Part shown: one piece after another, positions 18,674 through 49,261 of the stretch | Layout of the letters: the number at the start of each line of letters is the position of its first letter | How positions within the stretch are numbered: position 1 is the stretch's first letter | DNA from: an uncultured Bacillota bacterium | GTDB taxonomy: Bacteria > Sysuimicrobiota > Sysuimicrobiia > Sysuimicrobiales > Segetimicrobiaceae | Assembly (NCBI GenBank): GCA_963787105.1 | Contig: CAWBBU010000018.1 | Span: forward strand, 64,082 to 128,081 | Reading direction: 5' to 3' | Length of the DNA: 64,000 bases | Made by a program: the position numbers and the translations under genes | Notes under the pieces: generated by a model | The model's input: the letters and a program-made list of their open reading frames with translations, nothing else | The model's database searches: none | Told to the model about the DNA's origin: nothing

Positions 18674-18676
18674 AGC

Positions 18677-32611: not shown

Positions 32612-33262
32612 ATGATGAGAGGAACACTGCTCGCAGCAGTCCTTCTTGTCGCCGTGGTCGTCGGCCTGACGGTGCTGCCCGGCGTGGCATTCGCGGATAT
32701 CGTGGTGAACGGCGGCTTCGAAACCGGCGATTTGACGGGATGGACGACCAATCCGGCGCCCGCGGGCGGCTTTCCATGGACCGTCGAGACCACGGGCGGC
32801 CTCGGCCCAGGTTTTGCCAACAGCGGAAACTACTACGCCAGCACCGGTTGCGTCGGAGCCGGATGCCTTGATCCCATCACCGGCGCATGGCTCACACAGA
32901 CCCTGCCCACGATCGCCGGCCAGACCTACGATCTCAGCTTCGCCTATGACCCGTATCTGGGATCGCCAGTCGAACTGCAGGTCCAGTGGGGGGGCGCCAC
33001 GGTGTTGGATCTCATGAACAGCAACAGCCCCGGATATACCGTGTACACGGTGGATGATCTACTGGCCACGTCCGCGTCCACGCCGCTCACGTTTCTGGGC
33101 CGGGACGATCCGTCGTTCGACGGCTTGGACGATGTCGCGGTCAGTCCCACACCGGAGCCGTCGACCCTGGTGTTAGTGACGTCCGTCCTGCCATGCTTCG
33201 CCGGGATGCGCGTCTTATGGCTTCGGAAGTTACGCGTGTCGAACGGAGTATCCCGACCATAA
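32612..33262 (+). CDS. PEP-CTERM sorting-domain secreted protein with CBM/DUF642-like beta-sandwich
   Basis: Signal peptide MMRGTLLAAVLLVAVVVGL...AFA, then IVVNGGFETGDLTGWT. The C-terminal motif is SPTPEPSTLVLVTSVLPCFAGMRVLWLRKLR (PEP + TM + basic cluster). Confidence 0.7.
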   Translation: MMRGTLLAAVLLVAVVVGLTVLPGVAFADIVVNGGFETGDLTGWTTNPAPAGGFPWTVETTGGLGPGFANSGNYYASTGCVGAGCLDPITGAWLTQTLPTIAGQTYDLSFAYDPYLGSPVELQVQWGGATVLDLMNSNSPGYTVYTVDDLLATSASTPLTFLGRDDPSFDGLDDVAVSPTPEPSTLVLVTSVLPCFAGMRVLWLRKLRVSNGVSRP

Positions 33263-34493
33263 CGCGAGCGATACGTCGCGGCGCCGCCGAACGGACGCGT
33301 CCAACGCTCGCTTCCAAGTGGAGGTGACGGCGTCGCGCGCAGGATGGGGGTCTGCCCCTGCGTGTTGATCCGGACGCATGGGCCACCTCTTCGCACGCGG
33401 AACGTTCCTGCCCAATGCGTCACGGATATGCTGTTCTAGAATTCGACGCGGCGCGGCTGCGGGGCGGCGTCGACCGCCGATCGGGCTCGGCGGACCGGTC
33501 GATGCGCGAACGATGAGGGTCGGCTGGAACAGGATCGTCTGAGGGGGCAGGGAATCCGCCGCAGTCCCCGCGCGGAGCCGGTTGATGAGCAACTGCGCGG
33601 CCGCGGTCCCGAGGTCGTATCCGGGCTGGGCGATCGTCGTCAGGGGCGGCGTCAGGATGGGGGCCCAATCCATGTCGTCGAAGCCGATCACCGACATCTC
33701 GCCGGGAATCTGTACGTTGGATTCCTTGAGCCGCAGAAGCGCGCCGATCGTCATCAGGTTGTTGGCGACCAGGATCGCGGTCGGCCGTGGCCGCAGCCGC
33801 AGGAACTCGTCGACCAGGACGTACCCGCTCTGCTGTTTGAAATCTCCCTCGAGGATCAGCGCGTCGTCGACCGGCAGTCGGGCGTCCTGGAGCGCCTCGA
33901 TGTACCCTTCCAGACGCTCGCGTCCCGTGGAGTGGCGTCGCGGACCGGTAATCATCCCGATCCGCGTGTGCCCGAGCGTCAAGAGGTGCGCCATGCCCGC
34001 ACGAACGCCGGCCCGATTATCGATCAGCACCGCGTCGGACTGCAGGGCATCCAACTTCCGATCCACCTGCACGAGCGGGATCCGGATGGCCGGCGGCAGC
34101 GGGGATCCGTCGGGCGATCCGCCGGAGGGGGACAATACCAACCCGTCGGCGCGCTTTTCCCGGATCGTGCGCAAATGCAGCTCTTCCTTTTTCGCATCCT
34201 CATCGGCGTTGAAAAGCAGCAACGAGTAGCCGTGGGCCAGCACGACGTTCTCGACACCCCGGACCAGCGCGGCGAAAAATGGATTGGAGTTGTCGGAGAC
34301 TACGACGGCGAGGGTGTTGGTACTGCCCTTGATCATGCTGCGCGCGATCGAGCTCGGTGCGTAATCCAGCGATTTCGCCGCCCGCAAGACGCGCTCGCGC
34401 GACGCGTGGCTCACGCATCCATACCCGCCCAGGGCGCGCGCGGCGGTCGCGACCGAAACTCCCGCGTTTGCTGCGACATCGCGAATGGTCGTC
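33230..34493 (-). CDS. LacI-family transcriptional regulator (the conserved core ends near 33480; the tail is doubtful)
   Basis: ATG 34493: MTTIRDVAANAGVSVATAARALGGYGCVSHASRERVLRAAKSLDYAPSSIARSM, then a periplasmic-binding-like sugar domain up to ...TLIVRAST. A further 80 or so Arg/Pro-rich codons overlap the convergent gene and look like lost-stop read-through. Confidence 0.85.
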
Positions 34494-34766
34494 ATCGCAT
34501 CTCCCGGACGAAACGGTGAGATCACTGTCATGGCGCGGGCCGCGGTTTCGCCGGTGCCCGGACATCCGCAAGTGGCCTGTTGGACAGACGATCGTCCGGA
34601 CCCTTCACATACGGGGCCGCCCGCCGATCTCGAATTCGGCCGACTCATACCGTGCTCGATCACGGGGTAGACGTAAGGGACGTGTGCATCCACGCGGCAA
34701 TCGAGTACGTCGGCCCCATACGCGAATGCCACGTCGCCGGCTCCGTCCCGTCGCGCGCCCCCTGAG

Positions 34767-35652
34767 TCATGCCAGCAGGCCGGCCGCGCGCAGGGCGGCG
34801 CAGCACTGATCGGCCGCATCGGGGGACAGCGGCGCGAGCGGCGGCTTGGGGATGCCAGCGCGAATTCCCTTTGCGATCAACGCCGCCTTGAGCGCCGCCG
34901 GAATCGAGGTCGCGGCCAGGATCGCGTCCTGCCCGGCGATCACCTGCTGCTGCAATCGTTGCGCGAGCGTCAGATCTCCGGCGCGCATGGCACGGTACAG
35001 ATTGACCATGACTTCGGGACACACATTGCCCGAGTCCACACACGCCGCCTGCCGCGCCTGCGGCCATCGCGGGCAGAATGAGCGCGTCGTCGCCCATCAG
35101 CACGGGAACGTCCGGACGTACGGCCTTGAGGAGGCGGAGAAAGTACCCCATGTCGCCGCTGCTGTCCTTGAACGCGACCAGCCGCGGGTGCGCCGTGAGG
35201 ACCCGCACGGTGGCAATCGACAATCGATTCCCCGTCCGCGCGGGAAGCTCGTAGAGCGCCACCGGCAATGCCGACTCCCGCAACAGGGTCTCGAAGTATG
35301 TCCGAAGCTCCGATTGCTCGTAATGGTAGAAATGCGGGGTCATGATGACCGCGATATCGGCGCCATCCTCCGCCGCCATGGCGCTGAGCGTCCGTCCTTG
35401 ATCGATGGAAATCGCGGCGATGCTGGCGAGGACCGGCACCCTGCCGGCCGCCTGACGCCGCACGACCCTGAGCAACGCCCTCCGCTCGTCCACGCTCAGC
35501 AGGGGGCCCTCCCCCGTCGTGCCGCCGACGAAGAGGCCATGGATGCCGCCTCGGATCAACCCTTCAGTCAGCTCGGCCGCCGCCTCTTCGTCGATCCCGG
35601 TCGAGCTGATCGGTGTGACGATCGGCACTACGATCCCCTCGAGTCGCATCAT
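34767..35652 (-). CDS. DapA/NanA-family class I (Schiff-base) aldolase/lyase, one apparent frameshift
   Basis: ATG 35652 overlaps the upstream stop (ATGA). GIVVPIVTP...GIHGLFVGGTTGEGPLLS..ER...VPVLASI...ALYELPARTG...AFKDSSGD. It continues in ORF 34767..35039 (NVCPEVMVNLYRAMRAGD). The break is at the CCC run 35039-35041. Confidence 0.75.
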
Positions 35653-36410
35653 GCCTCCGTTCCCGGGGCAGCGGCTTCGTTGGACCTCATCCACCGCACC
35701 CACTCCGCGAGCGTCTGCCATGGTGCGGGCCCCGCGTCCTGCTCAAAGCACGCGGGACCGTTCCAGCCATTGAGCGCGCGCGTGACCGCTGCGAAGTTGA
35801 TCGCTCCGGGCGGCGACGCCGCGCCGTCCGGCAAGCCCTTCAAATGCACCATCGCGGTCACGTCGCGCACGTCCGCCACGATACGCGGGACGTCAAACCC
35901 CGCCTGCGCGGCGTTCCCAACGTCGACGTTCAAGCGCAGGCCCGGCACGCGGCGCACGAACTCCGCGAGCGCACGGAGATCGCTGCCGGGGCCGTTGCCG
36001 ATGTTCTCCAATACGAGCTGCACCCCGGCGTCCGCGGACGCACGCGCCCAGGTCGTGGCCAGGGACACGGCGCTGCTCCCAAGCGCGCCGAGATCGCCCG
36101 GGAAGATGCGGAGCATGCGCGCGCCGAGGGCTCGGGCGACCCCGAGGTCCGCCCGCAGCGGACTTTCCGCCCCCGCATCTGCCGGCTGGGCGGCGAGTGC
36201 GGTGTTGGTCGCGTAGATCGTGCTGAGGCCGTGCGCCGCGAGGATCTCGGCGACCTCCGCGGGAGAACGGCCCGCTCCCAAATAGTCCGGGCGCAGCTCG
36301 ACGGCGCGCAGCCCGAGCGCTTGGCAATGCCGGGCGACCATGTCCGGCGAGCTCTCGCTCGGCGCGGCCGACTCAAACACGACCGAACTGATCCCCAGTG
36401 TCAGGCTCAC
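35649..36410 (-). CDS. Xylose-isomerase-like TIM-barrel protein (sugar phosphate isomerase/epimerase family)
   Basis: 253-aa ORF. The GTG start overlaps the kdsB stop (GTGA). It has the general AP-endonuclease-2/TIM-barrel pattern (LRAVELRPDYL..., RMLRIFPG, LVLENIGNGPG). Confidence 0.65.
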   Translation of the reverse strand: MSLTLGISSVVFESAAPSESSPDMVARHCQALGLRAVELRPDYLGAGRSPAEVAEILAAHGLSTIYATNTALAAQPADAGAESPLRADLGVARALGARMLRIFPGDLGALGSSAVSLATTWARASADAGVQLVLENIGNGPGSDLRALAEFVRRVPGLRLNVDVGNAAQAGFDVPRIVADVRDVTAMVHLKGLPDGAASPPGAINFAAVTRALNGWNGPACFEQDAGPAPWQTLAEWVRWMRSNEAAAPGTEA

Positions 36411-37150
36411 GTCTTCGGAGCCGCCTTGGCGAGGATGGCCGCGACCACGTCGAGATCCGCCGGGGTGTCGACGCTCACGCCGGTGTATGGGAATCGCGTC
36501 TGGGACACTCGGATCCGGTGCCCGTGCTCCAGCGCCCGCAGCTGCTCCAGGGATTCGGTCTGTTCGAGCGGCGTCGGGGCGAGGCGCGTGAACTGCAGCA
36601 AAAACTCACGCCGGTACGCGTAGATGCCGATGTGCACCTGCGGGACCGCCACCCCCCTCACGCGCGGGTATGGGATCTGCGCGCGGGAGAAGTACAGCGC
36701 GCGACCGTTCAGGTCGGCGGCGACTTTCACGACGTTCGGGTTCTGGAACTCCTCGTCGGTGGTGATGGGCATCATGAGGGTCGCCATGTCGGCCTGCGGA
36801 TCGTCCCGCAGCAGCCCGATGACCTCGTCGACCATGCCGGGCTCGAGCAGGGGCTCATCGCCCTGCACGTTCACGACCACGTCGCACTCGATGCCGCGCG
36901 CGACCTCGGCCACCCGGTCCGTGCCGGTCGGGTGCGTCGTTGCGGTGATCCGCGCCTCGCCGCCGTGCGCGGCGACGGCTCGTTGAATACGTTCGTCGTC
37001 CGTCGCGACGACGACCTGGGTCACCGACTTCGCCGCGCGAGCGCGCTCCAGCACGTGGATGATCATGGGCTTGCCCGCGAGCACGGCCAGCGGCTTCCCT
37101 TCGAACCGCGTGGATCCGTATCGGGCCGGGATCACAACGAGCGCACGCAT
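36407..37150 (-). CDS. kdsB: 3-deoxy-manno-octulosonate cytidylyltransferase (CMP-Kdo synthetase)
   Basis: ATG 37150: MRALVVIPARYGSTRFEGKPL..GKPMIIHVLERA...VVVATDDERI...TGTDRVAEVA...VVNVQGDEPLL...ALYFSRAQIPY...IGIYAYRREFL...LEQLRALEHG..I. This is collinear with E. coli KdsB as I remember it. Confidence 0.85.
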   Translation of the reverse strand: MRALVVIPARYGSTRFEGKPLAVLAGKPMIIHVLERARAAKSVTQVVVATDDERIQRAVAAHGGEARITATTHPTGTDRVAEVARGIECDVVVNVQGDEPLLEPGMVDEVIGLLRDDPQADMATLMMPITTDEEFQNPNVVKVAADLNGRALYFSRAQIPYPRVRGVAVPQVHIGIYAYRREFLLQFTRLAPTPLEQTESLEQLRALEHGHRIRVSQTRFPYTGVSVDTPADLDVVAAILAKAAPKT

Positions 37151-37160
37151 GCCCGTCACC

Positions 37161-38378
37161 TCACGCCGATGGGCGCGGCACGCCGCGCTCCGAGGTCCGC
37201 GCACCCCACCGCTCAGTCACGGACGCGTACACGCGCGAGCGGTCAAGCGGCGTCACCTGATTCACGATCCACTCGCGCATCGCGATGCCCTCCGGCGTCT
37301 CCTGCGGCGCCGTCATGAACTCCGCGACCAAGCCGAGCTCACGGATCACTCCCCGCGCCAGCGCGGGCCACACCGCTCCGATGTCCGCCGAGATCGGCAC
37401 GCTGCCCTCCAGGCGGGTGAAGCCGGACATCTCCATGCGAAACGGAATGCCCGTGCTCTTCGTCTTGGGAAGGCCCTTGTCGATGGCTCCCTGAATGCGT
37501 CCGCCCTCGCGTTCGAGACGCCACGCGTGTTCGAGCTGCGGATCGAGGTCGATGCGGATGAGCACCTTGCCCTCGAGCCGGTACGTCGGATAGTGTTCCC
37601 ACGCGGCCCAAATGCCGTGCCCCAGGTAGAGCTCGAACGGCCCGTCGTGGATCTCCTGGGTGTAGGCGACCGCGGACTCGATAATCACGTCGGCATCGGC
37701 GAGGATCCGCGCGTTGCGCGCCGTGCGCTGGCCGACCGGAATGCTGTCGGCGACGGCGGTCCCCACCATGCCGCCGCCGATGAGCTGCGGCACCGTCACC
37801 ATGACCGGGACGCCGCGGCGCGCGCCGGCCCCAAGCATGGTCGACGGGTGGCAGCCGAACCCGGCGACGAGCTCAAACGGTTCGCCGACGCTCTGGGCGA
37901 GCATGAGCAGCTCGCGGGCCACGCGCTCCGTGCGCAACCCCATCGGATACGCCATGTTGCCCGCCGCCTTGATGATTACCGCGCCGTCGGCCGCGCTCGC
38001 GCGCGCGTACAGGTCCCGGTCGAATGGCATTTCGCGCGCCACCCAGTCGAGCTGTTCCGGGGGCATCACCGTAATCTCGAACACGCCCCCGCGCGGCAGC
38101 AGCTCCGCGGGCAGCCCCAACGGAACGCCTTGGACGCGGCGCACCCGGTCCAGCGTCCCGGCCATCTCATGCGCCACAACCGCCGAGCTCGTGAGGACTC
38201 CGTCGACGACGCCGATGCGAATGAGCTCGGCGATGAGTGTGGTGACGCCTTCATGAAGGTTGGGGCCGCTGCCGACGGCAACCGCGACCCGCCCGCCGCG
38301 CCGCTTCGCGGCCACCACCGCGTCCACCGCCTGCGCGACGCGCGCTTCTACTTCGCTGGACAGTATGCCGTTCGCCAT
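37161..38378 (-). CDS. Conserved-looking hypothetical protein (405 aa), function unknown
   Basis: ATG 38378 within ORF 37161..38666, with GGAGG 12 nt upstream. It ends 10 nt before kdsB. GSGPNLHEGVTTLIAELIRIGVVDGVLTSSAVVAHE weakly recalls deoxyhypusine-synthase-like Rossmann proteins, but I cannot assign a family. Confidence 0.5.
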   Translation of the reverse strand: MANGILSSEVEARVAQAVDAVVAAKRRGGRVAVAVGSGPNLHEGVTTLIAELIRIGVVDGVLTSSAVVAHEMAGTLDRVRRVQGVPLGLPAELLPRGGVFEITVMPPEQLDWVAREMPFDRDLYARASAADGAVIIKAAGNMAYPMGLRTERVARELLMLAQSVGEPFELVAGFGCHPSTMLGAGARRGVPVMVTVPQLIGGGMVGTAVADSIPVGQRTARNARILADADVIIESAVAYTQEIHDGPFELYLGHGIWAAWEHYPTYRLEGKVLIRIDLDPQLEHAWRLEREGGRIQGAIDKGLPKTKSTGIPFRMEMSGFTRLEGSVPISADIGAVWPALARGVIRELGLVAEFMTAPQETPEGIAMREWIVNQVTPLDRSRVYASVTERWGARTSERGVPRPSA

Positions 38379-38652: not shown

Positions 38653-40285
38653 TCACGCCCGGCCACTGCGGAGCCGATGCAACCGCGCCATGACCTCCGT
38701 GCCGCCCTCGCCGAAGTAGCGCGCGGTCTCGACGTAGTCCGAGTACAGGCGCTCGTACACGCCTCGCGCGCCGGCGTCCGGTCGGTACCACACCCGGTCC
38801 CTGTTCCCCATGCGCTCGACGACGCCGGTCATGTCGGAAGTCTCCTCCGCCGCCGCCACCGCGTAAATCGCCGCGCCGACCGCGGACGCATCGGGGACAC
38901 GGGCCGCGGCCACGGGGCGCCCGGTCACGTCGGCCGTGATCTGGAGCAATAGGGGGTTGCGCTCGGCCAGCCCGCCGCAGGCGTGGAGGCCCGCGATCGA
39001 CACCCCGCCCGCCTCAAATGTCTCGATGACGCGGCGGGTCCCGTATGCCGTCGCTTCCAGGAGCGCGCGATAGATCTCCGCCGGCTCGGTCGTGAGGGTC
39101 AGCCCAAGCAGCATGCCGGACAGGGTGGCATCGACCAGCGGCGTGCGACACCCGTTCCACCAGTCGAGCGCGAGCAGTCCCGACGCTCCCGGCGCGATCG
39201 CGGCCGCCTCCCGACCGAGACGCTCGAAGACGTCTTGGTCTCCGTACCGACCCGGGACGGCCGTCCGAAGAAACCAGAGGAAGATGTCGCCGACCGACGC
39301 TTGACCGGCCTCGTACCCGAACAGTCCGGGAAGGATTCCGTCCTCGACGACTCCCGAGATGCCGCGAACCGGCTGCCGCCTGGCATCGACGAGGAGATGG
39401 CAGGTCGACGTCCCCATGATCATAACGAGCTGGCCGGCCTCCGACACCCCGAGCGCGGGAACGGCCGCGTGCGCGTCGATCGTCGCGACCGCGACCGGCA
39501 CGCCGCTGTTCAAGACCCGTCCGGTCCGCCCATGCGGGCGTGAGTCGGCCCGCGCGCGTACCGACGGGACGCGGTGACGCGGCGAGGCGATCCAGCAAGC
39601 CGGGCAGCGCGGGATCGAGTCCCCGCCAGAACTCGCGCGGAGGGTACCCGGAGTCCTTTTGCCAGTGCGCTTTGTACCCCGCCTGGCACGCGCTGCGCGC
39701 TTCGCTCCCCGTCAGTTGCCAGACGAGCCAGTCGCCGGCCTCAATCCAGCGCGCGGTAGACTGCGACACGGCGGGGGGCGCTTCGGCGAGCACTTGCCAC
39801 CCTTTGGCCCACATCCACTCCGATGAGGTCTTCCCCCCGTACCACGCAAGGAATTCACTCTCGGGCTGCGCCGCGCGATCGTTGATGCGGTCGGCATAGG
39901 GCTGCGCCGCGTGATGTTTCCAGAGCTTCGGCCATGCGTGCGGCTCGGCGGCGAACTCAGGAATCAGGCACAGGGGCGTGCCGTCCGCCGTCGTCGGCAG
40001 AACGGTGCAGGACGTACAGTCGAGCCCGATCCCGATCACATCGTCGGGGCTCCCGACGTCACCCATCGCGTGCAGCAGGCTGGCCGCGGCCTCGAGCCAG
40101 TCGCCGGGATGCTGCAACGCCCAATCAGGCGGCAGTCTCTCGGTCCCGCCGGGGAGCGTGCGGTCGATCACGCCGTGCGTGTATGGGTGCGTCGCCGTCG
40201 CGATCACGCGCCCGTCGGCCGCATCGACGAGTACCGCGCGCGCGGACTCGGTGCCGAAATCGAGGCCGATCGCGTGGCGGCCCAT
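38653..40285 (-). CDS. FGGY-family carbohydrate kinase (ribulokinase-like), one apparent frameshift
   Basis: ATG 40285: MGRHAIGLDFGTESARAVLVD... It continues in ORF 38653..39513 (VPVAVATIDAHAAVPALG...IMGTSTCHLL...GYEAGQASVGDIF...LALDWWNG.R), which is AraB-like. Break near 39510. Confidence 0.8.
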
Positions 40286-41724: not shown

Positions 41725-41832
41725 CCCCGTGCGGCCGGCCCCCTCGCGAACCGACCACAGCCCCGTTTGATGACTCAGACCATGCCCGACCCGTCTCTCC
41801 GGAACAGCGCGGAGCCCCGCGCCATCCTCTCT

Positions 41833-41844
41833 GAGAACGTTCTC
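41833..41844. promoter_or_regulatory. LacI-type operator candidate, site 1: perfect palindrome GAGAACGTTCTC
   Basis: Read directly (ctGAGAACGTTCTCta), 109 nt upstream of the isomerase start codon (41724, minus strand). The central CG and AACGTT core fit LacI-family operators. Confidence 0.6.
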
Positions 41845-42084
41845 TACTTCGGTAACCTACGAGCCCCTCCTCCTGGGAGCGGGCGGACATCAGCGGACGC
41901 GCGAGTCGGATATCCCAACTGCCAAGGCGGCGCGAGCGGCGACATGCTGGTGGTCGCGGGGCGACGGAAACGGGCCTTCCCGAGATGGTCGGTAACCCGA
42001 CCCGTGCTGCCCGCTGCGCTGACGCCGGTCCCTCCCGACGGGGAACCCTTGTAGGCACTCCGAACGGCCGGACGGCACGGGACG

Positions 42085-43013: not shown

Positions 43014-43129
43014 ATGGTCGGTGCCCTCCTTGAGTTTCCGGCCGATGCATTCTAGTCTACCGTCCTGCGCGTCCGCGGTGTATCCTTCGCACATCCGGTC
43101 GACGCTCAGAACGGCGGAGGACAAGCACA

Positions 43130-44137
43130 ATGGGACAGACACCCACGGTGGCCATGCTGATACCATACCCGACGCGGGCGGAGGTACTCACCGCGAACAT
43201 GGAGCGCCGCCTGGGGTCGATCGCCCGAGTCGTGTCAACGCCGGAGCAGGATCCGGATCGATGGGACCTCCGGGCGATGCTGACGGGTGCGGACGCCTGC
43301 CTGACGGGGTGGGGCACGCCGGCCCTGTCGGATGAACTGCTGGCCAGTGTGCCGACCATCAAGTTCGTGGCGCATACGGGCGCCAGCATCCGTCGCCTCG
43401 TTCCCCGCGCCGCGATCGAGCGCGGCCTTATCCTCTCACACGCGTCGTCGATGATCGCCGACGCCGTGGCCGAGATGGTGGTGCTGCAGGCGCTGCTGCA
43501 TGTGCGAAGGCTGCCTGACATGGACCGTGCGATCAAGCACGGGGCCGACTGGCAGGAGACCTTCGATCGATACCTCGGCAGGCAGCTCGGCGCGCTGACG
43601 GTCGGCATCGTCGGAGCCAGCCACGTGGGGAGGGCCGTCATTCGTCTCCTCAAGGCGTTTGGCAGTCGGGTGCGCGTGTACGATCCCACGCTCACCCAGA
43701 TCGAGGCGTCGCGGCTCGGGGTCGAACCGGTCGCGCTTGCCGAGTTGATGCGCTCATGCGATATCGTCAGCCTCCACGCACCCGTGCTGGCCGAAACCAT
43801 CGGAATGATCGGCGCCTCCGAGCTGGCGCTTATCCGCAACGGCGGGCTCTTTATCAACACCGCTCGGGCCGCATTGGTCGATAACACCGCGCTCCTCAGT
43901 CACCTCCGCGAGGGACGTTTTTCGGCCGCGTTGGACGTCTTCGAACAGGAGCCTCTTCCGGATGACAGCGAGCTCCGGCAGCTGCCGAACGTGGTACTGT
44001 CTCCCCACGCCGGCGGCCATACCGTTGACACCCAATTTCGACAAGGAGAAGCGATGGTGGCCGAACTGGAGCGGTTCTTCCGGGGAGAACCGCTGCGATT
44101 CGCTGTTGATCCCGCCGCGCTCTCGATCATGGCCTGA
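43130..44137 (+). CDS. D-isomer-specific 2-hydroxyacid dehydrogenase family protein
   Basis: 335-aa ORF with GGAGGA upstream. GIVGASHVGRAVIRLLKAFGSRVRVYDP (NAD site), ...SLHAPVL..T..MI and LSPHAGG are present. Confidence 0.8.
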   Translation: MGQTPTVAMLIPYPTRAEVLTANMERRLGSIARVVSTPEQDPDRWDLRAMLTGADACLTGWGTPALSDELLASVPTIKFVAHTGASIRRLVPRAAIERGLILSHASSMIADAVAEMVVLQALLHVRRLPDMDRAIKHGADWQETFDRYLGRQLGALTVGIVGASHVGRAVIRLLKAFGSRVRVYDPTLTQIEASRLGVEPVALAELMRSCDIVSLHAPVLAETIGMIGASELALIRNGGLFINTARAALVDNTALLSHLREGRFSAALDVFEQEPLPDDSELRQLPNVVLSPHAGGHTVDTQFRQGEAMVAELERFFRGEPLRFAVDPAALSIMA

Positions 44138-44211: not shown

Positions 44212-44225
44212 TGAGAACGCTCTCA
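44212..44225. promoter_or_regulatory. LacI-type operator candidate, site 2: TGAGAACGCTCTCA
   Basis: Read directly. The 16-mer GTGAGAACGCTCTCAC is palindromic in 7 of 8 pairs and shares the GAGAACG half-site with sites 1 and 3. It lies 93 nt upstream of the sugar-binding protein ATG 44318. Confidence 0.55.
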
Positions 44226-44317: not shown

Positions 44318-45580
44318 ATGAGATGGGTGACGTGTGTGATTGCAGCGGCCGTGATGGTCGTGTCTCTACCGTTTGCGGGAATGACGGCATCGCCGGTGGT
44401 CATCACGTCCTGGAACGGTGTGGGACCGCCGGAAAATGTCATCTTGTCCCAATTCACCAGGGACTTCAACACCAAGTACGCGGGGCAGATCCAGGTGACC
44501 GAGAACGTCACGAAGTGGGACACGCTGTACTCGCAGATTCTGACGGACTACCGGTCGGGCAATCCGCCGGATGTCTTGACCTTCGAGACGTCGGCGCTGC
44601 CGCAGTACGTGCACTTCGGCGTCCTGCAGCCGGTGGGCCCGCTGATGGCGCAGGCCGGTTTGAAGCAGTCAGATTTCGTTCCGGCAGTGTGGCGAAGCAC
44701 GTTCATCGGCGGTGTCCAGTACGCCGTCCCCCTCGACGTACATCCGTGGGGATTCTTTTACAACCGCAAGCTCTTCCAGGCGGCAGGTCTACCCGATCGC
44801 GCGCCGCGGAACATGGCGGAGTTTCTGAGCGACGCGCAAAAGCTGACCGTCGCCGGTACCGGCGGGGCACCCGACCAGTACGGATTTGGATTCAACTACA
44901 ACGGCGCGAATCCGAGCCGGCTGATGATCTCGCTGCTGGCGCAAAAGGGCAAGAACATCCTGTCGCCGGATAACAAGCGCGCCGTGTTCGACACCGCCGA
45001 CACCCGGGAAGTGCTGCAGTTCCTCTACGACCTCGTCTACAAGTACAAAGTGGTGCCGCAGCGCGAGACCGACGCGGTCGGAGACTTCAAGCGCGGCGCG
45101 ATCGCGATGCTCGTCACCGGCCCGTGGGAGATCCCAGACTTCAAGGGCGTGTCGGGGCTCGACTTTGCGACCGCCGCGATGCCGGTCTTTTACAACAAGC
45201 CCGGCGTGTGGGGCGACGCGCACGACCTGGTGCTGTCGAAGACAAACTCGCCCGAGCGCCAGAAGGCGGCGATGGAGTTCGCCGCCTACATCAGCAGCCG
45301 GGGATACGAGTGGACCACCCAGGCGGGGCACCTGCCCGTGCGCGAGGACGTCATCAACAACCCCCAGTTCAAGACGCTCGGGTACTGGCAGCCACTGGTC
45401 GCCGAGGAAAGTTACATGACGGTCTATCCGCCCATTGACCAGTTTTCTGAGATGTTCGGCCAGGACCCGACCGCGCCGCTTGTGAAGATGACGGAGTCGA
45501 TCCTGCTCAATCAAGGCGTCCATCGCAGCGGCGGTCACGCAGGCGCAGACCGAGTTCAACCGGTGCTCGCGCAGAAGTAG
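44318..45580 (+). CDS. ABC sugar transporter substrate-binding protein (family 1, CUT1-type)
   Basis: ATG 44318 with signal-like MRWVTCVIAAAVMVVSLPFAG. It shows the typical family-1 pattern (ITSWNG..., PDVLTFE, GPWEIPDF). The last 25 or so codons read better with a compensated frame excursion (see findings). Confidence 0.85.
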   Translation: MRWVTCVIAAAVMVVSLPFAGMTASPVVITSWNGVGPPENVILSQFTRDFNTKYAGQIQVTENVTKWDTLYSQILTDYRSGNPPDVLTFETSALPQYVHFGVLQPVGPLMAQAGLKQSDFVPAVWRSTFIGGVQYAVPLDVHPWGFFYNRKLFQAAGLPDRAPRNMAEFLSDAQKLTVAGTGGAPDQYGFGFNYNGANPSRLMISLLAQKGKNILSPDNKRAVFDTADTREVLQFLYDLVYKYKVVPQRETDAVGDFKRGAIAMLVTGPWEIPDFKGVSGLDFATAAMPVFYNKPGVWGDAHDLVLSKTNSPERQKAAMEFAAYISSRGYEWTTQAGHLPVREDVINNPQFKTLGYWQPLVAEESYMTVYPPIDQFSEMFGQDPTAPLVKMTESILLNQGVHRSGGHAGADRVQPVLAQK

Positions 45581-45626
45581 TGGCGCGCATGTACGAAGAA
45601 CCGCGCGCGCTGCGAAAGGCCACGCG

Positions 45627-46550
45627 GTGATCAGCAACGGGGAGGCGCGGATCGGGGTCGATCCGCGCCTCCCTACCCGTCGTAGGACTTCGCCGTTCCG
45701 ATCGGCGTGGGCGTGGGGGATGCTTGCGCCCTACCTCATTTGCCTCGTGCTGTTCTTCCTCGTGCCGTTCTTTTTTGCCGTCGCGATCAGCTTCACCCGA
45801 TGGCAGATCATCGGGCAGCCCGTGTTCATCGGGTTCGCGAACTATCTCCGCGCCGCCCAGGACCCGTCGGTGCGGCAAGCCATTGGGAACACGTTTTATT
45901 ACATGGCGCTCATGACGTCGACGCTGATGATCCTGGGACTCGGGCTGGCGCTGCTGCTCAACGCGCCGGTGCCGGGGCGGTATCTCGCCAGAACAGTCGT
46001 CGTGATGCCGTACGTGATCAGCGTCTCGGTCATGGGGATCCTCTGGCGTTGGATGTATGACCCGAACTTCGGCATCATCAACTACTATCTGGGCCGTCTC
46101 GGACTGCCGCGGTTATGGTGGCTCACGGACACCGTCCAGGCGATGCCGTCGATCGTCATCGCGGACTGGTGGTGGATCGCCAGTTTCACCACGGTGGTCT
46201 ACCTCGCCGGGCTCCAGGCGATCCCACGGGAGTTGTACGAGGCCGCCGAGGTCGACGGGGCGTCGGCGCGGAGCAAGTTCTGGCACGTGACACTCCCGGG
46301 CCTCCGTCCGGTCACGCTCTACGTGCTCATCCTCAACACGATCACATCGTTTCAAATGTTCGGCGAGTCGTTTGTGATGACCCAAGGCGGTCCGCTCGGC
46401 ACCACCACCACGCTGACGTATAAACTCTACGACGCCGGATTCTTCGATCTCCAGCTCGGCTACGCCGCCGCCCTGTCGGTGGTGTTTCTCATCGCCATCG
46501 TGGCCCTGACCGCCGTGGAGTTCCGGGTGCTCAAACTTGCTGGGGACTGA
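45627..46550 (+). CDS. ABC sugar transporter permease (MalF/UgpA-like)
   Basis: 307-aa ORF. AWAWGMLAPYLICLVLFFLVPFFFA and the EAA-loop region YEAAEVDGASARSKFWHVTLPGLRP. Confidence 0.85.
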   Translation: MISNGEARIGVDPRLPTRRRTSPFRSAWAWGMLAPYLICLVLFFLVPFFFAVAISFTRWQIIGQPVFIGFANYLRAAQDPSVRQAIGNTFYYMALMTSTLMILGLGLALLLNAPVPGRYLARTVVVMPYVISVSVMGILWRWMYDPNFGIINYYLGRLGLPRLWWLTDTVQAMPSIVIADWWWIASFTTVVYLAGLQAIPRELYEAAEVDGASARSKFWHVTLPGLRPVTLYVLILNTITSFQMFGESFVMTQGGPLGTTTTLTYKLYDAGFFDLQLGYAAALSVVFLIAIVALTAVEFRVLKLAGD

Positions 46551-47409
46551 CGCCGTCTCGTCCCGTTGGCTGACGCCTGCGCGGGTGCGGCGCGTGGTGT
46601 TGACGTGCCTGATCGCACTGGTCATCGTCGCCTACGCGGGGCCGACGCTGTGGCTGGTGTCGACCTCCGTGACCGAGGAGGGGCGTGTCTTCACCCGGAT
46701 CCCGCAGTGGATTCCCCATCCGATCACCATCGCCAACTACCAGTTCGCGTTTCTCACGTATCCGTTGGGACGATGGTTTGTGAACAGCGCGGTCGTCTCA
46801 TTGGTGACCGTGGCGTTGTGCGTGCTCATCAACGTGCCTGCGGGGTATGCGTTTGCCCGGCACCGCTTCCCCGGAGATGGGATCCTCTTTTGGCTCACGC
46901 TGGCCTCGGTCATGGTGCCGGTGCAGGCCTACTTGGTTCCCATGTACCTGCTCTTTACGCAATTCGGGCTGATCAACACGCTCACCGGATTGATTCTGCC
47001 GTTCCTGTCGAACGGGTTCGGCGTATTTCTGATGCGGCAGTTTATCCAGCAGATTCCACCTGAACTGGAAGAGGCGGCCATCATTGATGGCGCGTCCCGC
47101 GTGGTCGTGCTGTGGCGGGTCGTTGTGCCGCTGATCACCCCAGCGATCGCGACGCTCGTGATCTTCCGCTTCATGCAGAGCTGGAATTCGTTCGCGTGGC
47201 CGCTGGTCGCGGCGAGCAGCGACAGGTCGATCACCTTGCCCGTGGGACTGGCGCTGCACGTGTTCGGCGTGGTCGGCTCCGCGTCCGCGCAACCGCGGTT
47301 CGGCCTCTCGATGGCCGCATCGTTTGTCTCGATGGCGCCCGCGATTGTGGTGTTCCTACTGCTGCAGCGCTACTTCGTTGAAGGCATGGCGTCGTCGGGG
47401 CTCAAGTAG
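46537..47409 (+). CDS. ABC sugar transporter permease (MalG/UgpE-like)
   Basis: 290-aa ORF overlapping the previous gene by 14 nt. EAA loop: LEEAAIIDGASRVVVLWRVVVPL. Confidence 0.85.
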   Translation: MLGTDAVSSRWLTPARVRRVVLTCLIALVIVAYAGPTLWLVSTSVTEEGRVFTRIPQWIPHPITIANYQFAFLTYPLGRWFVNSAVVSLVTVALCVLINVPAGYAFARHRFPGDGILFWLTLASVMVPVQAYLVPMYLLFTQFGLINTLTGLILPFLSNGFGVFLMRQFIQQIPPELEEAAIIDGASRVVVLWRVVVPLITPAIATLVIFRFMQSWNSFAWPLVAASSDRSITLPVGLALHVFGVVGSASAQPRFGLSMAASFVSMAPAIVVFLLLQRYFVEGMASSGLK

Positions 47410-48232
47410 CGAGGCCGGCATTCACGCCCTGTCCTGCATCGACCCAGGGCACCGGATGAGCAAACCGAGCGGCGTACACGCGCGTGAGATGGTCGACCGC
47501 CAGAGGAAGCAGCTCGAGGCCGCGCCCCTCCCCCTGGAACGAAATGGTCAGGTCCTGATGGTAGCCGAGCGCCCCGAGCGCCCATAGGAGACCGTACCAC
47601 CACAGCGTTCCGTCACCCGGATAGGTCGTCTGTTGGCGGCCGAGAAGAGACCGTACGTCCGTCGCGTGGACGTGTCCGATTCTCCGATTGAGCACATACG
47701 CCGACCGCACGGGATCCTCTCCGACCAACACGGGCGCCGCCGTGTCGAAGGAGGCCTGGATCCAAGGAGTGGCCGCCGCATCGATCAGCGCCCGCACACG
47801 CACGACCGACCCCGGCAGCGGCTCGTTCGCCAGCAGGAGGTGAACACCGGCCTCTTTGGCCTGCTGAAGAAACGTCCACTGAGGGTCCCCGGTCGGCGGG
47901 AGCATGCGCATGCGCTTCGCGCCGAGCGCCCCCGCGGTTGCAAGCGCCGCACCTGCCGGCTCTATGTCGCCGTGACCGGATGGGAACCGTAGACCGCTTC
48001 CATAAACGACCGTACAACCCGCCCGATTCGCAGCGTCGCGGGTCGCCGCGGCGTCTTGCGTCCACTCGGGGTCGACCTCAACGCCCCGGCACCCGAGCGC
48101 CGCCGCCTGTTGCAGAAACTGCTCGATCGTGACTCGGCCGGACCGTAACTCCGCGGCCGCGACGGCCGTGTGGACGGCAAGGCGCATCCGGGAGCGCCCC
48201 TGAGCGGCGGGACCGGACGACGTCGTGTTCAT
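47402..48232 (-). CDS. Xylose-isomerase-like TIM-barrel protein
   Basis: ATG 48232 overlaps the upstream BNR gene stop (ATGA). RGVEVDPEW..., AKRMRMLP, VHLLLANEP, IGHVHATD pattern. Confidence 0.6.
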   Translation of the reverse strand: MNTTSSGPAAQGRSRMRLAVHTAVAAAELRSGRVTIEQFLQQAAALGCRGVEVDPEWTQDAAATRDAANRAGCTVVYGSGLRFPSGHGDIEPAGAALATAGALGAKRMRMLPPTGDPQWTFLQQAKEAGVHLLLANEPLPGSVVRVRALIDAAATPWIQASFDTAAPVLVGEDPVRSAYVLNRRIGHVHATDVRSLLGRQQTTYPGDGTLWWYGLLWALGALGYHQDLTISFQGEGRGLELLPLAVDHLTRVYAARFAHPVPWVDAGQGVNAGLAT

Positions 48233-49185
48233 CCCTCGAGCGCCGCCTGGTCGAACGTGAGGTGCGCGATCGCGAACCGTCGATCGGTATAGAGCAGATG
48301 CAGCATGCCGTCCGAGCCCTGGATGATGGCGGGATACGAATATTCCCCCGGCTCGGTCTCGACGTCGCGGGCGACGCGCCACGACTTTCCCCGGTCCTCG
48401 GACACCGCGAGTGTTAGGGGAGACCGATCGTACAACGCATTGTTGAACGCCAGCACCAGGCGGTCATCGGGCGTGCGCACCATGTCCACGCCGGCGTCCG
48501 GGTTAGGGAGCGCGATCGGTGTCGGCGATGACCACGTGCGACCGCGATTGGTCGACTGTGCCCGCCACAGCGGCCCGCGGCCCTGCGTCCGCATCAGGCA
48601 CACCAGCTCGCCGTCCGGAAACTCGACGATCGTGGGCTGCTCGTTCCCCGGCGTGGACCGGATGGGCATAGAGGTCTCCCATGACTGGCCTTCATCCCCG
48701 GAGATCAAGCAGACCGAGGCGTGCACACCCGTGTCATCGTACAGCGGGAGTAAAAGCTCGCCGTTCGACAGGACGCACGGCGTGTTCCGAGGCATCAACC
48801 CCGTCTCGTCGCGAAGCACGTGCCGGGGCCCGAACGTCACGCCGCCGTCGGTTGACACCCGGTACTTCAGCTTGCACGCGCCCCAATTGAGAACCTCGTA
48901 CATCACGGAGTAAAACAGTCGGAGTTCCCCGGGCCTCACTGAGAACAGCACGGGATTGCCGACCGTGCACCCCTCGGTCTCCACGAGCACAACGGCTTCC
49001 GTCCAAGTTCCCGTGGACCGCCGAAAGAACGCACCGAGGATTACAACGTCGGACGCGTACTCGTGCGAGCCCCCATACCACGCAGCCATGAGGTCACCGC
49101 TGGGCAATTCGCACACCGTGGCCGCGTGCACCGAAGGGTGGTCAGGAGAATCGCCGAACACGACGCGTTTCTCCCATGTCGCCAT
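48229..49185 (-). CDS. BNR/Asp-box repeat sialidase-fold (GH33-like) protein, no signal peptide seen
   Basis: Intact 318-aa ORF with four Asp-boxes read directly: STDGGVTF, SGDEGQSW, STNRGRTW, SEDRGKSW. Confidence 0.8.
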   Translation of the reverse strand: MATWEKRVVFGDSPDHPSVHAATVCELPSGDLMAAWYGGSHEYASDVVILGAFFRRSTGTWTEAVVLVETEGCTVGNPVLFSVRPGELRLFYSVMYEVLNWGACKLKYRVSTDGGVTFGPRHVLRDETGLMPRNTPCVLSNGELLLPLYDDTGVHASVCLISGDEGQSWETSMPIRSTPGNEQPTIVEFPDGELVCLMRTQGRGPLWRAQSTNRGRTWSSPTPIALPNPDAGVDMVRTPDDRLVLAFNNALYDRSPLTLAVSEDRGKSWRVARDVETEPGEYSYPAIIQGSDGMLHLLYTDRRFAIAHLTFDQAALEG

Positions 49186-49249
49186 GCTTGTCGCTCCATC
49201 GACATGATGTCACCAGGACGATCGGGTGCAGGTAGACAACCCCCGCATA

Positions 49250-49261
49250 GAGAACGTTCTC
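49250..49261. promoter_or_regulatory. LacI-type operator candidate, site 3: perfect palindrome GAGAACGTTCTC
   Basis: Read directly (taGAGAACGTTCTCac), 65 nt upstream of the BNR gene start (49185, minus strand). It is identical to site 1 over the 12-bp core; the 16-mer matches the reverse complement of site 1 at 15 of 16 positions. Confidence 0.6.

Follow-up and report, generated by a model that had tools for sequence, protein, structure and literature searches.

In the present study, we analyzed a window of 64,000 nucleotides from an uncultured soil bacterium, in which the locus of interest occupies positions 33230-49261 (Table 1). With Pfam and NCBIfam, nearly all of the genes that an earlier note on this DNA had named were found where it had placed them, namely those for a BNR protein, a CUT1 importer, a DHDPS-family lyase, a FucI-family isomerase, an FGGY kinase, KdsB, two dehydrogenases, and a 405-aa protein (UNK405), and its family calls and chemical logic were upheld. 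Two details had to be corrected. There are only two AP_endonuc_2 genes, not three TIM-barrel enzymes, and the locus is not headed by the LacI-family gene, which is the final gene of the minus-strand array.

Table 1. Genes and putative operators of the locus (positions in the window)
Feature	Position	Strand	Family match	Remarks
LacI-family repressor	33230..34495	-	Pfam LacI HTH, Peripla_BP_1/3	
DHDPS/NanA-family class I (Schiff-base) pyruvate lyase	34767..35652	-	Pfam DHDPS	candidate Kdo aldolase
TIM-barrel protein 1 (TIM1)	35649..36410	-	Pfam PF01261, AP_endonuc_2	xylose-isomerase-like; translationally coupled to KdsB and lyase
KdsB, CMP-Kdo synthetase (3-deoxy-manno-octulosonate cytidylyltransferase)	36407..37150	-	NCBIfam NF003952, TIGR00466	
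UNK405, orphan 405-aa protein	37161..38378	-		conserved partner of KdsB; distant deoxyhypusine-synthase/LOR-SDH-like fold
AraB-type ribulokinase (FGGY)	38653..40285	-	PRK04123, TIGR01234	
Short FucI-family aldose-ketose isomerase (454-474 aa)	40300..41724	-	Pfam Fucose_iso_N1/N2/C	candidate D-arabinose isomerase
Operator O1, TGAGAACGTTCTCT	41832..41845			upstream of FucI operon; same place in L084, L085, and L086
GFO/IDH/MocA oxidoreductase	42085..43050	-	Pfam	syntenic in close relatives
D-isomer-specific 2-hydroxyacid dehydrogenase	43130..44137	+	Pfam 2-Hacid_dh_C	syntenic in close relatives
Operator O2, TGAGAACGCTCTCA	44212..44225			upstream of binding-protein gene
CUT1-type extracytoplasmic solute-binding protein	44318..45580	+	Pfam SBP_bac_1/8	signal peptide, no lipobox
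ABC permease 1	45627..46550	+	Pfam BPD_transp_1	
ABC permease 2	46537..47409	+	Pfam BPD_transp_1	
TIM-barrel protein 2 (TIM2)	47402..48232	-	Pfam AP_endonuc_2	start overlaps BNR stop
Cytoplasmic GH33-like six-bladed propeller (BNR)	48229..49185	-	Pfam BNR_2, 219 bits	candidate ulosonic-acid (Kdo) glycosidase
Operator O3, AGAGAACGTTCTCA	49249..49262			64 bp upstream of BNR start

The gene order of the locus is the same in three related contigs (L084, L085, and L086), two of which (L085 and L086) are as diverged from the window as 88-93% DNA identity. In the window, the lyase and kinase genes have one 1-nt insertion each (near 35028 and at 39515, respectively). Because both genes are intact in the related contigs L085 and L086 (293 aa and 543 aa), the two apparent frameshifts are insertions peculiar to this assembly; the kinase insertion is also absent from L084, which is 98.3% identical over 20 kb. 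They look like errors of long-read assembly, as the alignment with L084 has 37 gap openings in 20 kb, nearly all of a single base. Gene decay is disfavored by these gaps and by the intact genes in the relatives. The LacI open reading frame is approximately 70 codons longer than its L085 orthologue (350 aa), probably owing to another indel in this assembly.

The LacI-family protein matched the NCBIfam models of RbsR, PurR, and CytR, in every case under the cut-off. A LacI-type 14-bp palindrome, TGAGAACGyTCTCA, is present at three sites in the 64 kb (six strand-matches, with 0.54 expected), and all of these lie within promoter gaps of the locus, with none elsewhere in the window. They are retained in relatives with 88-98% identical DNA. 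Since the palindrome precedes the FucI-to-lyase operon, the ABC importer, and the BNR-TIM2 pair, these three units make one predicted LacI-type regulon. The palindrome scan found no operator in the promoter gap between the GFO and 2-hydroxyacid dehydrogenase genes.

KdsB exceeded the cut-offs of both of its NCBIfam equivalogs (NF003952, 300 against 193 bits; TIGR00466, 225 against 155 bits), and a full-length alignment with Escherichia coli KpsU (1GQ9) shows that IPARYGS.R..GKPL, QGDEP, YFSR..IPYPR, H.GIYAYRR, ESLEQLR, and VDTPA are all kept. The NeuA and PseF models gave at most 39 bits, far under the scores of the KdsB models. Judged by these motifs and scores, it is a canonical CMP-Kdo synthetase, and the identity given in the earlier note stands.

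The main new fact of the locus is the partner of KdsB, UNK405, for which no Pfam or NCBIfam family scored above its cut-off. It has more than 3900 homologues, the best 120 of which share 58-83% identity; family members from more than 12 phyla are 54-65% identical and were confirmed at 593 places in GTDB species genomes. When 1.84 billion representatives were searched with a profile, only about two full-length 50% clusters emerged. The best Foldseek matches of its AF2 model (pLDDT 90.8) are deoxyhypusine synthase (DHS) and the LOR/SDH-type ornithine cyclodeaminase domains of ArgZ/AgrE, all NAD-dependent enzymes, with a TM of just 0.4-0.5 and 10-14% identity; HMMER detected no relationship to them. 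From this model, UNK405 is probably an NAD-binding, DHS-like enzyme, although its context is sugar-acid metabolism, unlike the polyamine or arginine context of DHS and ArgZ/AgrE. Translational coupling in the UNK405-to-lyase operon is visible directly in the sequence, the start of the lyase gene overlapping the stop of TIM1.

Neighboring genes were counted in those GTDB species loci (42) in which UNK405 is flanked by 5 kb or more on either side. kdsB was near UNK405 in 30 of them, adjacent in 29, and both gene orders occur. A DHDPS-family gene and a BNR gene were each found in 14 of the 42, importer genes were of the TRAP (6), SSF (9), ABC (5), or MFS (2) type, and regulators were common; seven loci had none of these neighbors. 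Homologues of the binding protein of the window (42-44% identity) are found in extended UNK405 clusters of two Anaerolinea MAGs (L065 and L076), and a TIM1 homologue (25% identity) lies between KdsB and DHDPS in an Aerophobetes locus (L015); TIM1 itself had no NCBIfam match. The DHDPS-family lyases that accompany the core in other phyla are a mixed group (median identity 34%) and differ in their motifs. As far as gene context can tell, the UNK405-KdsB pair is an ancient conserved core, which lyase, BNR, and importer genes join elsewhere; it is a widespread gene pair without earlier description, around which the locus is built. Thus, the co-occurrence suggested by the earlier note was found in part: KdsB, UNK405, the DHDPS lyase, the sialidase-like protein, and an importer recur together in many phyla, whereas FucI and FGGY do not. 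FucI, AraB, GFO, and the 2-hydroxyacid dehydrogenase were each present in 0-1 of 83 other UNK405 loci, and on this distribution the FucI-like isomerase, the AraB kinase, and the two dehydrogenases are additions peculiar to this lineage.

These additions raise the possibility that the BNR-TIM2 pair, the ABC importer, the dehydrogenases, the pentose genes, and the KdsB core are unrelated modules that are merely adjacent and share no pathway. Spacers of approximately 270 bp between AraB and UNK405 and between the lyase and LacI genes, the gap without an operator, and the occurrence of BNR-TIM2 alone in L088/L089 would agree with this. However, three identical operators, kept in diverged relatives, join three transcription units, the gene order has been held in those relatives, and importer, BNR, and lyase genes are found again next to the core in distant phyla; we therefore consider a chance assemblage very improbable.

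The BNR protein has four Asp-boxes (STDGGVTF, SGDEGQSW, STNRGRTW, and SEDRGKSW), and no signal peptide was found in it. Its AF2 model (pLDDT 95.5) gave a TM of 0.90 to the Micromonospora viridifaciens sialidase. The active site is a variant one (mapped residues His20, Glu42, Asp46, Gln183, Arg199, Arg254, and Tyr284), in which His and Gln take the place of the first Arg and the catalytic Glu of GH33 sialidases. The family retains two Arg and the nucleophile Tyr typical of enzymes that act on carboxylated ulosonic sugars, and BNR proteins beside UNK405 in other phyla have an H/E/D/Q/R/R/Y signature identical to that of the window protein. BNR-TIM2 is a conserved two-gene module, present in L084-L086; in L088/L089, which have the closest outside relative of BNR, the pair stands in an unrelated context, not linked to KdsB or UNK405.

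The repaired lyase scored under the cut-offs of dapA (172/206), NanA (152/281), and KDG aldolase (138/390), and is thus not assigned to any of these; the earlier note had regarded membership in true DHDPS or KDG aldolases as fatal to its reading. The motifs (GTTGE, YELPARTG, and FKDSSGD) are DapA-like, including the Arg of YNVPSRTG, and dapA was the top model. The isomerase is far from characterized FucI (equivalog score 101 against 775 bits), and the solved structures closest to it are those of L-fucose and D-arabinose isomerases (E ~1e-20). The repaired kinase passed both ribulokinase equivalogs (PRK04123, 627/428; TIGR01234, 605.5/583), which bears out the ribulokinase-like assignment made before. 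That AraB-type kinases are named, and their equivalogs defined, on L-ribulose substrates counts against a D-ribulose substrate; however, Pfam and NCBIfam annotation found no AraD in the locus, nor NanK, NanE, NagA, or NagB, and the absence of AraD fits D-ribulose over L-ribulose. No importer ATPase gene was found in the locus. The nearest solved structures of the GFO protein are MviM-like proteins, not NanOx/YjhC, and the 2-hydroxyacid dehydrogenase scored under the cut-off of every NCBIfam equivalog; whether these two belong to the pathway is uncertain.

Kdo is an eight-carbon sugar acid that occurs in bacterial LPS and plant pectin. The best reading of the locus, in which we have moderate confidence, is that it serves the utilization of a Kdo-type ulosonic acid; among Kdo-type 3-deoxy-2-ulosonic acids, Kdo or a small Kdo-glycoside is the most likely substrate. 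The substrate would be imported by the CUT1 ABC system, and the ulosonic acid would be freed by the cytoplasmic BNR protein with its coupled TIM-barrel partner. The lyase would cleave Kdo to pyruvate and D-arabinose, the isomerase would convert D-arabinose to D-ribulose, and the ribulokinase would form D-ribulose-5-phosphate, which could enter the pentose-phosphate pathway with no epimerase required. The carbon count fits, as pyruvate (C3) and the pentose branch (C5) add up to C8. Other phyla have a different downstream set (PfkB, SIS, Zn-ADH, Fe-ADH, and an Amidohydro_2 lactonase-like protein), which would likewise be suited to a pentose or its phosphate as product. In parallel, KdsB would convert Kdo and CTP to CMP-Kdo, and UNK405 would act on Kdo or CMP-Kdo. 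Activation by KdsB counts against the route, since catabolism has no obvious need for CTP. So do the DapA-like motifs and top model of the lyase, the distance of the isomerase from characterized FucI, the two sialidase residues missing from the BNR protein and the lack of KdsB or UNK405 near its nearest outside relative, the dehydrogenase genes without an operator, and the seven well-flanked UNK405 loci that have none of the counted neighbors.

The substrate might instead be KDN, a sialic-type nonulosonic acid, Dha, or another 3-deoxy-ulosonic acid, or the locus might serve an L-arabinose, L-fucose, or D-arabinose glycoside and carry KdsB-UNK405-TIM-lyase as a passenger module. The lyase, isomerase, and BNR protein are assigned at the family level only, the AraB equivalogs are defined on L-ribulokinases, BNR-TIM2 is found elsewhere without the core, and the sialidase-like propeller is not confined to sialidases, as it also occurs in GH93 arabinanases. 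Nevertheless, another substrate appears unlikely, because KdsB is so far above the NeuA and PseF models, the five genes sought are missing, the BNR family keeps its ulosonic-type residues and is found again beside UNK405-KdsB in other phyla, and one operator is common to BNR-TIM2, the importer, and the FucI-to-lyase operon.

An alternative possibility is that the core uses imported Kdo to make CMP-Kdo, or a derivative modified by UNK405, for a glycan of the cell surface, or that the lyase runs in reverse, from D-arabinose and pyruvate to Kdo, with the catabolic-looking genes secondary. KdsB is the canonical biosynthetic enzyme, and in a few genomes a kdsA-kdsD-kdtA LPS operon surrounds UNK405-kdsB instead of the lyase, sialidase-like, and importer set. 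In Synergistaceae the order is lpxB-msbA-lpxK-kdsA-kdsD-kdtA-UNK405-kdsB, a position that would link UNK405 to Kdo, and kdtA adjoins the pair in seven loci. A diderm, LPS-bearing host would agree with the signal peptides of the solute-binding proteins in the window, which are of type I and lack a lipobox. However, most UNK405 loci lack a glycosyltransferase but have lyases, importers, repressors, and sialidase-like hydrolases; neither the locus in the window nor most related loci contain a Kdo transferase. Furthermore, the kinase reaction of the window runs irreversibly toward catabolism, a sugar-type LacI repressor stands over the whole set, and many carriers of the pair are Chloroflexota, a phylum that, to our knowledge, is generally held to lack LPS. 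We thus regard salvage or biosynthesis as rather improbable, and the earlier suggestion of re-activation for LPS is not supported in the form given; KdsB here belongs to a conserved pair whose other member is an orphan enzyme.

The closest known systems are the nan clusters, such as E. coli nanATEK-yhcH and the 2,7-anhydro-Neu5Ac cluster of Ruminococcus gnavus, which comprises GH33, a CUT1 ABC importer, the GFO-family NanOx, and NanA. Both types are under repressor control and combine a DHDPS/NanA-family pyruvate lyase with an importer of their own (ABC, TRAP, or SSF) and an enzyme of the sialidase fold; as in R. gnavus, a GFO-family oxidoreductase adjoins the CUT1 importer in the window, and YhcH/NanQ-like genes, which are sialic-acid-type neighbors, occur in four UNK405 loci. 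Unlike nan clusters, the locus has a pentose branch in place of NanK, NanE, NagA, and NagB, a lyase that fails the NanA cut-off, a GFO protein not close to NanOx/YjhC, and a cytoplasmic sialidase-like protein with the two active-site replacements, and its KdsB and orphan DHS-like enzyme have no counterpart there. The same canonical KdsB family functions in Kdo biosynthesis and activation (KdsD-KdsA-KdsC-KdsB-WaaA), whose operon contains UNK405-KdsB in some phyla, and in Kdo salvage by E. coli (NanT and KdsB); in the locus of the window, however, kdsA, kdsC, kdsD, and waaA are absent, and KdsB lies within an importer/lyase/kinase operon under a sugar repressor.

Kdo aldolase (EC 4.1.2.23) has been known as an enzyme activity since the 1960s. 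In the literature searched, no gene was assigned to it; no Kdo catabolic locus was described there either, and on the latter point the earlier note agrees. Together with D-arabinose/L-fucose catabolism, this activity has the same chemistry as the proposed route (Kdo to pyruvate and D-arabinose, then D-ribulose and its phosphate ester), although the isomerase of the window is a short, distant relative of FucI and the kinase is of the AraB type, neither FucK nor DarK. Compared by description, KdoH1/KdoH2 (KdhAB) of Francisella and Helicobacter resemble the BNR protein in the sialidase fold and in the proposed action on Kdo-glycosides; KdoH2 is membrane-associated, has a second subunit, and trims LPS, whereas the BNR protein is soluble, cytoplasmic, and paired with a TIM-barrel protein.

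Long spurious open reading frames are common in the window because of its high GC content (62-71%), and the genes were mapped from codon-position GC together with HMM scans (see the table). The list of genes in the earlier note was borne out by this map with two exceptions. Three TIM-barrel enzymes had been counted, whereas we found two AP_endonuc_2 TIM-barrel genes (TIM1 and TIM2), and the LacI gene had been placed at the head of the locus, whereas it is the last gene on its strand. The importer genes are those of a CUT1 ABC sugar importer, an SBP_bac_1 binding protein with two MalF/MalG-type permeases, and the ATPase is not encoded within the locus. Inside the otherwise tightly packed operon, about 270 bp lie between the ribulokinase gene and that of UNK405, an orphan protein. 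The length of this spacer is not conserved (it is about 83 bp longer in the related contig L085), and it contains no operator, no Rfam match and no convincing terminator. The Rfam scan found nothing within the locus, and the promoter and terminator scan gave no excess compared with shuffled sequence.

Features of the window discussed in the text (window positions)
Feature	Position	Strand	Remarks
Pilin-like ORF	9099-9971	+	type IV pilin-like N-terminal motif
Peptide and amino-compound genes	14567-29237		flank
LacI	33230-34495	-	HTH and sugar-binding domain
DHDPS-family lyase	34767-35652	-	extra base near 35028
TIM1	35649-36410	-	AP_endonuc_2 TIM barrel
KdsB	36407-37150	-	
UNK405	37161-38378	-	405 aa, without family
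Spacer	38379-38652	-	
FGGY kinase	38653-40285	-	extra base at 39515
FucI-family isomerase	40300-41724	-	short
Operator	41832		upstream of FucI operon
GFO/IDH/MocA oxidoreductase	42085-43050	-	
2-Hydroxyacid dehydrogenase	43130-44137	+	
Operator	44212		upstream of binding-protein gene
SBP_bac_1 and two permeases	44318-47409	+	without ATPase
TIM2	47402-48232	-	second AP_endonuc_2 TIM barrel
BNR_2 protein	48229-49185	-	318 aa, four Asp-boxes, without signal peptide
Operator	49249		64 bp upstream of BNR gene
LanM	50018-52468	-	class II, 816 aa
Group II intron domain	61855-61990	-	RF02003

The lyase and kinase genes are each split across two frames in the window. Three related contigs (L084, L085 and L086) share the locus with identical gene order; DNA identity to the window is 98.3% for L084 and 88-93% for L085 and L086, which come from two JGI metagenomes. 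Both genes are intact in L085 and L086 (lyase, 293 aa; kinase, 543 aa). In the window each carries one additional base, of which that in the kinase gene is absent from L084. Furthermore, comparison of the window with L084 over 20 kb (window 38869-59188) revealed 37 gap openings, nearly all single-base, and this pattern is what error-prone long-read assemblies give. Pseudogenization of the two genes was therefore rejected in favor of assembly indels, and both genes are treated as functional; likewise, any frameshift in the window is a possible assembly error. Several of the gaps lie within genes, at the C-terminus of the binding protein (45514 and 45562), at the N-terminus of the GFO protein (42991) and in the LanM gene.

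KdsB scored above the curated cut-offs of four of the five KdsB models (bit score/cut-off, among them NF003952, 300/193; NF009905, 298/255; TIGR00466, 225/155), and NeuA- and PseF-type models gave at most 39 bits. It aligns end to end with Escherichia coli KpsU (1GQ9), and the nucleotide-, metal- and Kdo-binding motifs are all kept in this alignment (the P-loop-like IPARYGS.R..GKPL, QGDEP, H.GIYAYRR, ESLEQLR and VDTPA). The KdsB assignment of the earlier note thus stands, and these computations identify the protein as a canonical CMP-Kdo synthetase, with CTP + Kdo -> CMP-Kdo + PPi as the predicted reaction.

The lyase matches Pfam DHDPS with 168 bits, and after removal of the inserted base (repaired) it is a full-length DHDPS-family protein. 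The Schiff-base lysine, GxTGE and the catalytic Tyr of the DHDPS/NanA class I aldolase superfamily are present, and its FKDSSGD, GTTGE and YELP segments align with E. coli DapA and NanA. The scores are below the cut-offs for true DapA (TIGR00674, 172 for the repaired window protein and 174 for that of L085, against 206), for the NanA equivalogs (152/281 and 135/382), for the archaeal KDG/KDPG-type aldolase (NF040954, 138/390) and, with the repaired protein, for KdgD. By these model scores, the protein is predicted to be a DHDPS-family lyase outside the DapA, NanA, KDG aldolase and KdgD models, to be read with the caution that a DapA-like Y-x-x-P-x-R-T-G motif with its Arg is present. Only a handful of relatives exceed 49% identity, and the next ones drop to about 40%. 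The isomerase contains all three FucI domains (Pfam Fucose_iso_N1, N2 and C) with scores below the FucI equivalog level (101/775 and 90/850), and at 454-474 aa it is 120-140 residues short of the FucI length of about 590 aa. The repaired kinase exceeds both ribulokinase equivalog cut-offs (627/428 and 605.5/583; 636 and 612 for the orthologue in L085), which identifies it computationally as a putative AraB-type ribulokinase.

In the promoter gaps, a stricter inverted-repeat search found nothing; a looser scan for imperfect palindromes revealed TGAGAACGyTCTCA at three places. With up to two mismatches allowed, the 64-kb window contains no further site; the six strand-matches compare with 0.54 expected, and a count of six was not reached in any of 100 shuffles. 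Their positions are kept in L084-L086. The motif is built like a LacI-family operator, as a CG-centered palindrome, and its occurrence in the target promoters, together with the domains of the LacI protein, is as expected for a LacI-family repressor with predicted operators. Computationally, the operator joins three units, namely the BNR-TIM2 pair, the importer genes and the FucI-to-lyase operon, as a single predicted LacI-type regulon. No operator site lies in the short stretch that separates the divergently transcribed GFO and 2-hydroxyacid dehydrogenase genes; thus, these two genes are syntenic, but their membership in the regulon is not demonstrable.

UNK405 has more than 3900 homologues, the best 120 of which are 58-83% identical to it, and the named sources include Chloroflexota, Spirochaetota, Bacteroidota and Hydrogenedentota. 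When one genome per GTDB species was scanned, the gene was confirmed at no fewer than 593 places, and the carriers among the matches listed belong to more than 12 phyla and are nearly all uncultured. A profile search of 1.84 billion representatives of 50%-identity clusters gave 213 matches, which comprise about two full-length clusters and otherwise fragments; therefore, identity throughout the family exceeds about 50%, and HMMER detects no distant relatives. The AlphaFold model (pLDDT 90.8) is best matched in the PDB by the NAD-dependent LOR/SDH ornithine-cyclodeaminase domains of ArgZ/AgrE and by deoxyhypusine synthase (DHS), at 10-14% identity. The sequence profile found nothing in the PDB below E=0.17, and Pfam DS, the deoxyhypusine synthase family, gave no match at E<=0.01. 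Judged from the model, UNK405 would be DHS-like at the fold level only (TM 0.4-0.5).

At 83 UNK405 loci, the open reading frames were clustered and the recurrent clusters were named with Pfam; neighbors were counted in the 42 GTDB loci that had 5 kb or more of flanking sequence on each side. A kdsB homologue (median 52% identity to the window KdsB) was present in 30 of the 42 loci, and in 29 it lay within 300 bp of UNK405, in either order. DHDPS-family and BNR_2 genes were each found in 14/42, importer genes of the SSF, TRAP, CUT1 ABC and MFS types in nine, six, five and two loci, respectively, and kdtA (waaA) in three, while seven loci had no such neighbor. Regulators of the IclR, DeoR, LacI or GntR type are common. 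An extended set that recurs in Chloroflexota and Spirochaetota comprises DeoR, Fe-ADH, Zn-ADH, SIS, UNK405, KdsB, DHDPS, an importer, PfkB, Amidohydro_2 and YjbQ, and a YhcH/NanQ-like gene occurs in four loci. Homologues of the window binding protein (42-44% identity) occur in extended Anaerolinea clusters, and an Aerophobetes locus (L015) has the arrangement LacI ... UNK405-KdsB-TIM-DHDPS in common with the window. The co-occurrence of genes suggested by the earlier note was thus seen for KdsB, DHDPS and BNR together with UNK405, but not for FucI and AraB; homologues of these two, of the GFO protein and of the 2-hydroxyacid dehydrogenase were found in none or one of the 83 loci.

In Synergistaceae (L059, L062 and L067), UNK405 lies inside a classical lipid A/Kdo operon, lpxB-msbA-lpxK-kdsA-kdsD-kdtA-UNK405-kdsB, with a gene for a putative ELM1-like glycosyltransferase after it. 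The operon shows no kdsC, so it may be asked whether UNK405 takes over a step of the Kdo pathway. Taken together, the gene counts show a phylum-spanning pair of predicted UNK405 and KdsB genes, mostly in clusters resembling those for sialic-acid utilization and sometimes in operons for Kdo/lipid A biosynthesis.

Some further arrangements were observed among these loci. In three Chloroflexota MAGs (L013, L014 and L016, two of them labelled Caldilineales), UNK405 and KdsB are separated by an inserted PhyH-like gene, and such neighbors may hint at hydroxylated Kdo derivatives. A KdsB-UNK405-SSF-GH38 block on a contig binned as Bathyarchaeia (L021) reflects either lateral transfer or misbinning. 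GGT adjoins UNK405 in a Caldilineaceae locus (L001), probably by coincidence.

The BNR protein was modelled as a six-bladed beta-propeller (pLDDT 95.5; TM 0.90 to the Micromonospora GH33 sialidase, 1EUR), which with its four Asp-boxes agrees with the GH33 fold. The full set of GH33 catalytic residues (Arg triad, Tyr with its Glu partner, acid/base Asp) was not found. In a profile alignment with solved sialidases, R199, R254 and Y284 fall on the second and third Arg and the nucleophile Tyr, and the Glu partner aligns with Gln183 or Ile182. The invariant H20 appears to replace the first (RIP) Arg; this is our reading of the motif position, as the N-terminus was left unaligned by HMMER. E42 and D46 are the acid/base candidates. 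Because of these changes and the lack of a signal peptide, the protein is predicted to be a cytoplasmic sialidase-like enzyme with an altered center. The H/E/D/Q/R/R/Y signature is common to it and the BNR proteins adjoining UNK405 elsewhere, which usually have a signal peptide. Its closest outside relative (75% identity) occurs as a BNR-TIM2 pair only, in an unrelated neighborhood (L088:10001-11763 and L089) next to paaABCD-like genes and an amino-acid ABC system, and no KdsB, UNK405 or lyase gene lies within 10 kb; therefore, the pair would be a mobile two-gene module of its own. A BNR homologue also stands alone in L087, where a PhyH-like gene (Fe/2-oxoglutarate dioxygenase family; L087:11292-12092) adjoins it. 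The idea that BNR is an obligatory member of the core is weakened by these three contigs. An exact look-up of the BNR protein and of a second window protein gave no database record for either.

We infer that the substrate is Kdo, because of the identity of KdsB and the kdsA-kdsD-kdtA context of UNK405. Kdo would be cleaved to pyruvate and D-arabinose, and the latter would be converted via D-ribulose to D-ribulose 5-phosphate. The locus combines a pyruvate lyase (C3) with a pentose isomerase and a pentulokinase (C5) and has no AraD, and thus the carbon arithmetic fits this route. It is a matter of speculation that the PfkB kinase, SIS isomerase, dehydrogenases and lactonase-like hydrolase found elsewhere might handle this C5 product along different routes. 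The window locus appears to belong to a widespread and undescribed class of loci for the utilization of Kdo-type ulosonic acids, with KdsB and the orphan DHS-like enzyme as the probable invariant core. The nan clusters are the closest known systems, above all the R. gnavus cluster for 2,7-anhydro-sialic acid, with its CUT1 importer, GFO-family NanOx, NanA and GH33 enzyme. Unlike these, the window locus has no NanK or NanE, and no ROK kinase, NagA or NagB was found among its genes. The GFO protein is not NanOx-like; such a role was considered and is unsupported, the closest solved structures being MviM-like.

The earlier note had read the locus as one for Kdo scavenging, catabolism and salvage into LPS. 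The observation itself was confirmed; the interpretation has support in part and can be made more precise. Some of the phyla carrying UNK405 are not known to have LPS. These carriers, the strict coupling to UNK405 and the absence of a transferase are left unexplained by salvage into LPS. CTP activation within a utilization cluster is the feature that the utilization reading does not explain. UNK405 may use NAD-assisted chemistry on CMP-Kdo, at the carbon activated by the CMP leaving group, may furnish KdsB with its substrate form, or may stand in for a missing enzyme of the Kdo pathway. A bolder joint reading, which we consider rather unlikely as a whole, is that UNK405 is a new NAD-dependent enzyme acting on CMP-Kdo or feeding KdsB; that KdsB-UNK405 is an unknown phylum-spanning Kdo route in which a nucleotide-activated ulosonic acid is obligatory in utilization; that the adjoining DHDPS-family genes encode the long-missing Kdo aldolase (EC 4.1.2.23); and that the His-variant BNR proteins represent a novel Kdo glycosidase family.

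Nearly all bacteria with LPS synthesize Kdo, as do plants (in rhamnogalacturonan II), and large amounts are therefore released in soils, sediments and guts. We know of no gene defined for its breakdown, and Kdo aldolase is, as far as we are aware, an orphan activity. In agreement with the earlier note, which knew of no defined Kdo catabolic locus, none is described in the open-access literature that we searched, where we found neither a gene assigned to this aldolase (Kdo -> D-arabinose + pyruvate) nor a reference sequence, nor any account of the present cluster. According to a 2023 paper, no Kdo aldolase is annotated in E. coli. The known Kdo hydrolases are LPS-trimming membrane enzymes. Apparent leads in Bacillus coahuilensis and Pontimonas were dropped, both being islands for Kdo biosynthesis. 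The locus and its relatives thus offer concrete candidate genes for import, release and cleavage of Kdo and for funnelling of the pentose. UNK405 is very strongly conserved, unstudied and almost always beside kdsB, even inside the lipid A/Kdo operon, and its function, once known, could change the textbook picture of Kdo metabolism. It could also explain why a CMP-Kdo synthetase is kept by organisms thought to be LPS-free, and could be a source of enzymes for Kdo analytics, for labelling LPS or for glycan engineering.

The flanks of the locus contain no taxonomic marker genes, and no tRNA or rRNA gene was found in the window. The binding-protein signal peptides in the window have no lipobox, which hints at, though does not decide for, a diderm host. 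One flank is rich in genes for peptides and amino compounds, including peptide ABC systems, with two SBP_bac_5 binding proteins, a PmbA/TldD-like protein, an opine dehydrogenase, an amidohydrolase, an amidase and a gamma-glutamyltranspeptidase. The annotated start of the pilin-like ORF (G/FTLVETM, then a hydrophobic helix) is probably too far upstream. On the other side, a lanthipeptide cluster begins past 50 kb, directly beside the locus. Its LanM appears N-terminally truncated compared with the 1122 aa of L084 (L084:5799-9504), probably by further assembly indels, and in L084 a Nif11-type leader peptide gene follows. The group II intron domain (102.5 bits against a gathering score of 49) is the only Rfam match in the window.
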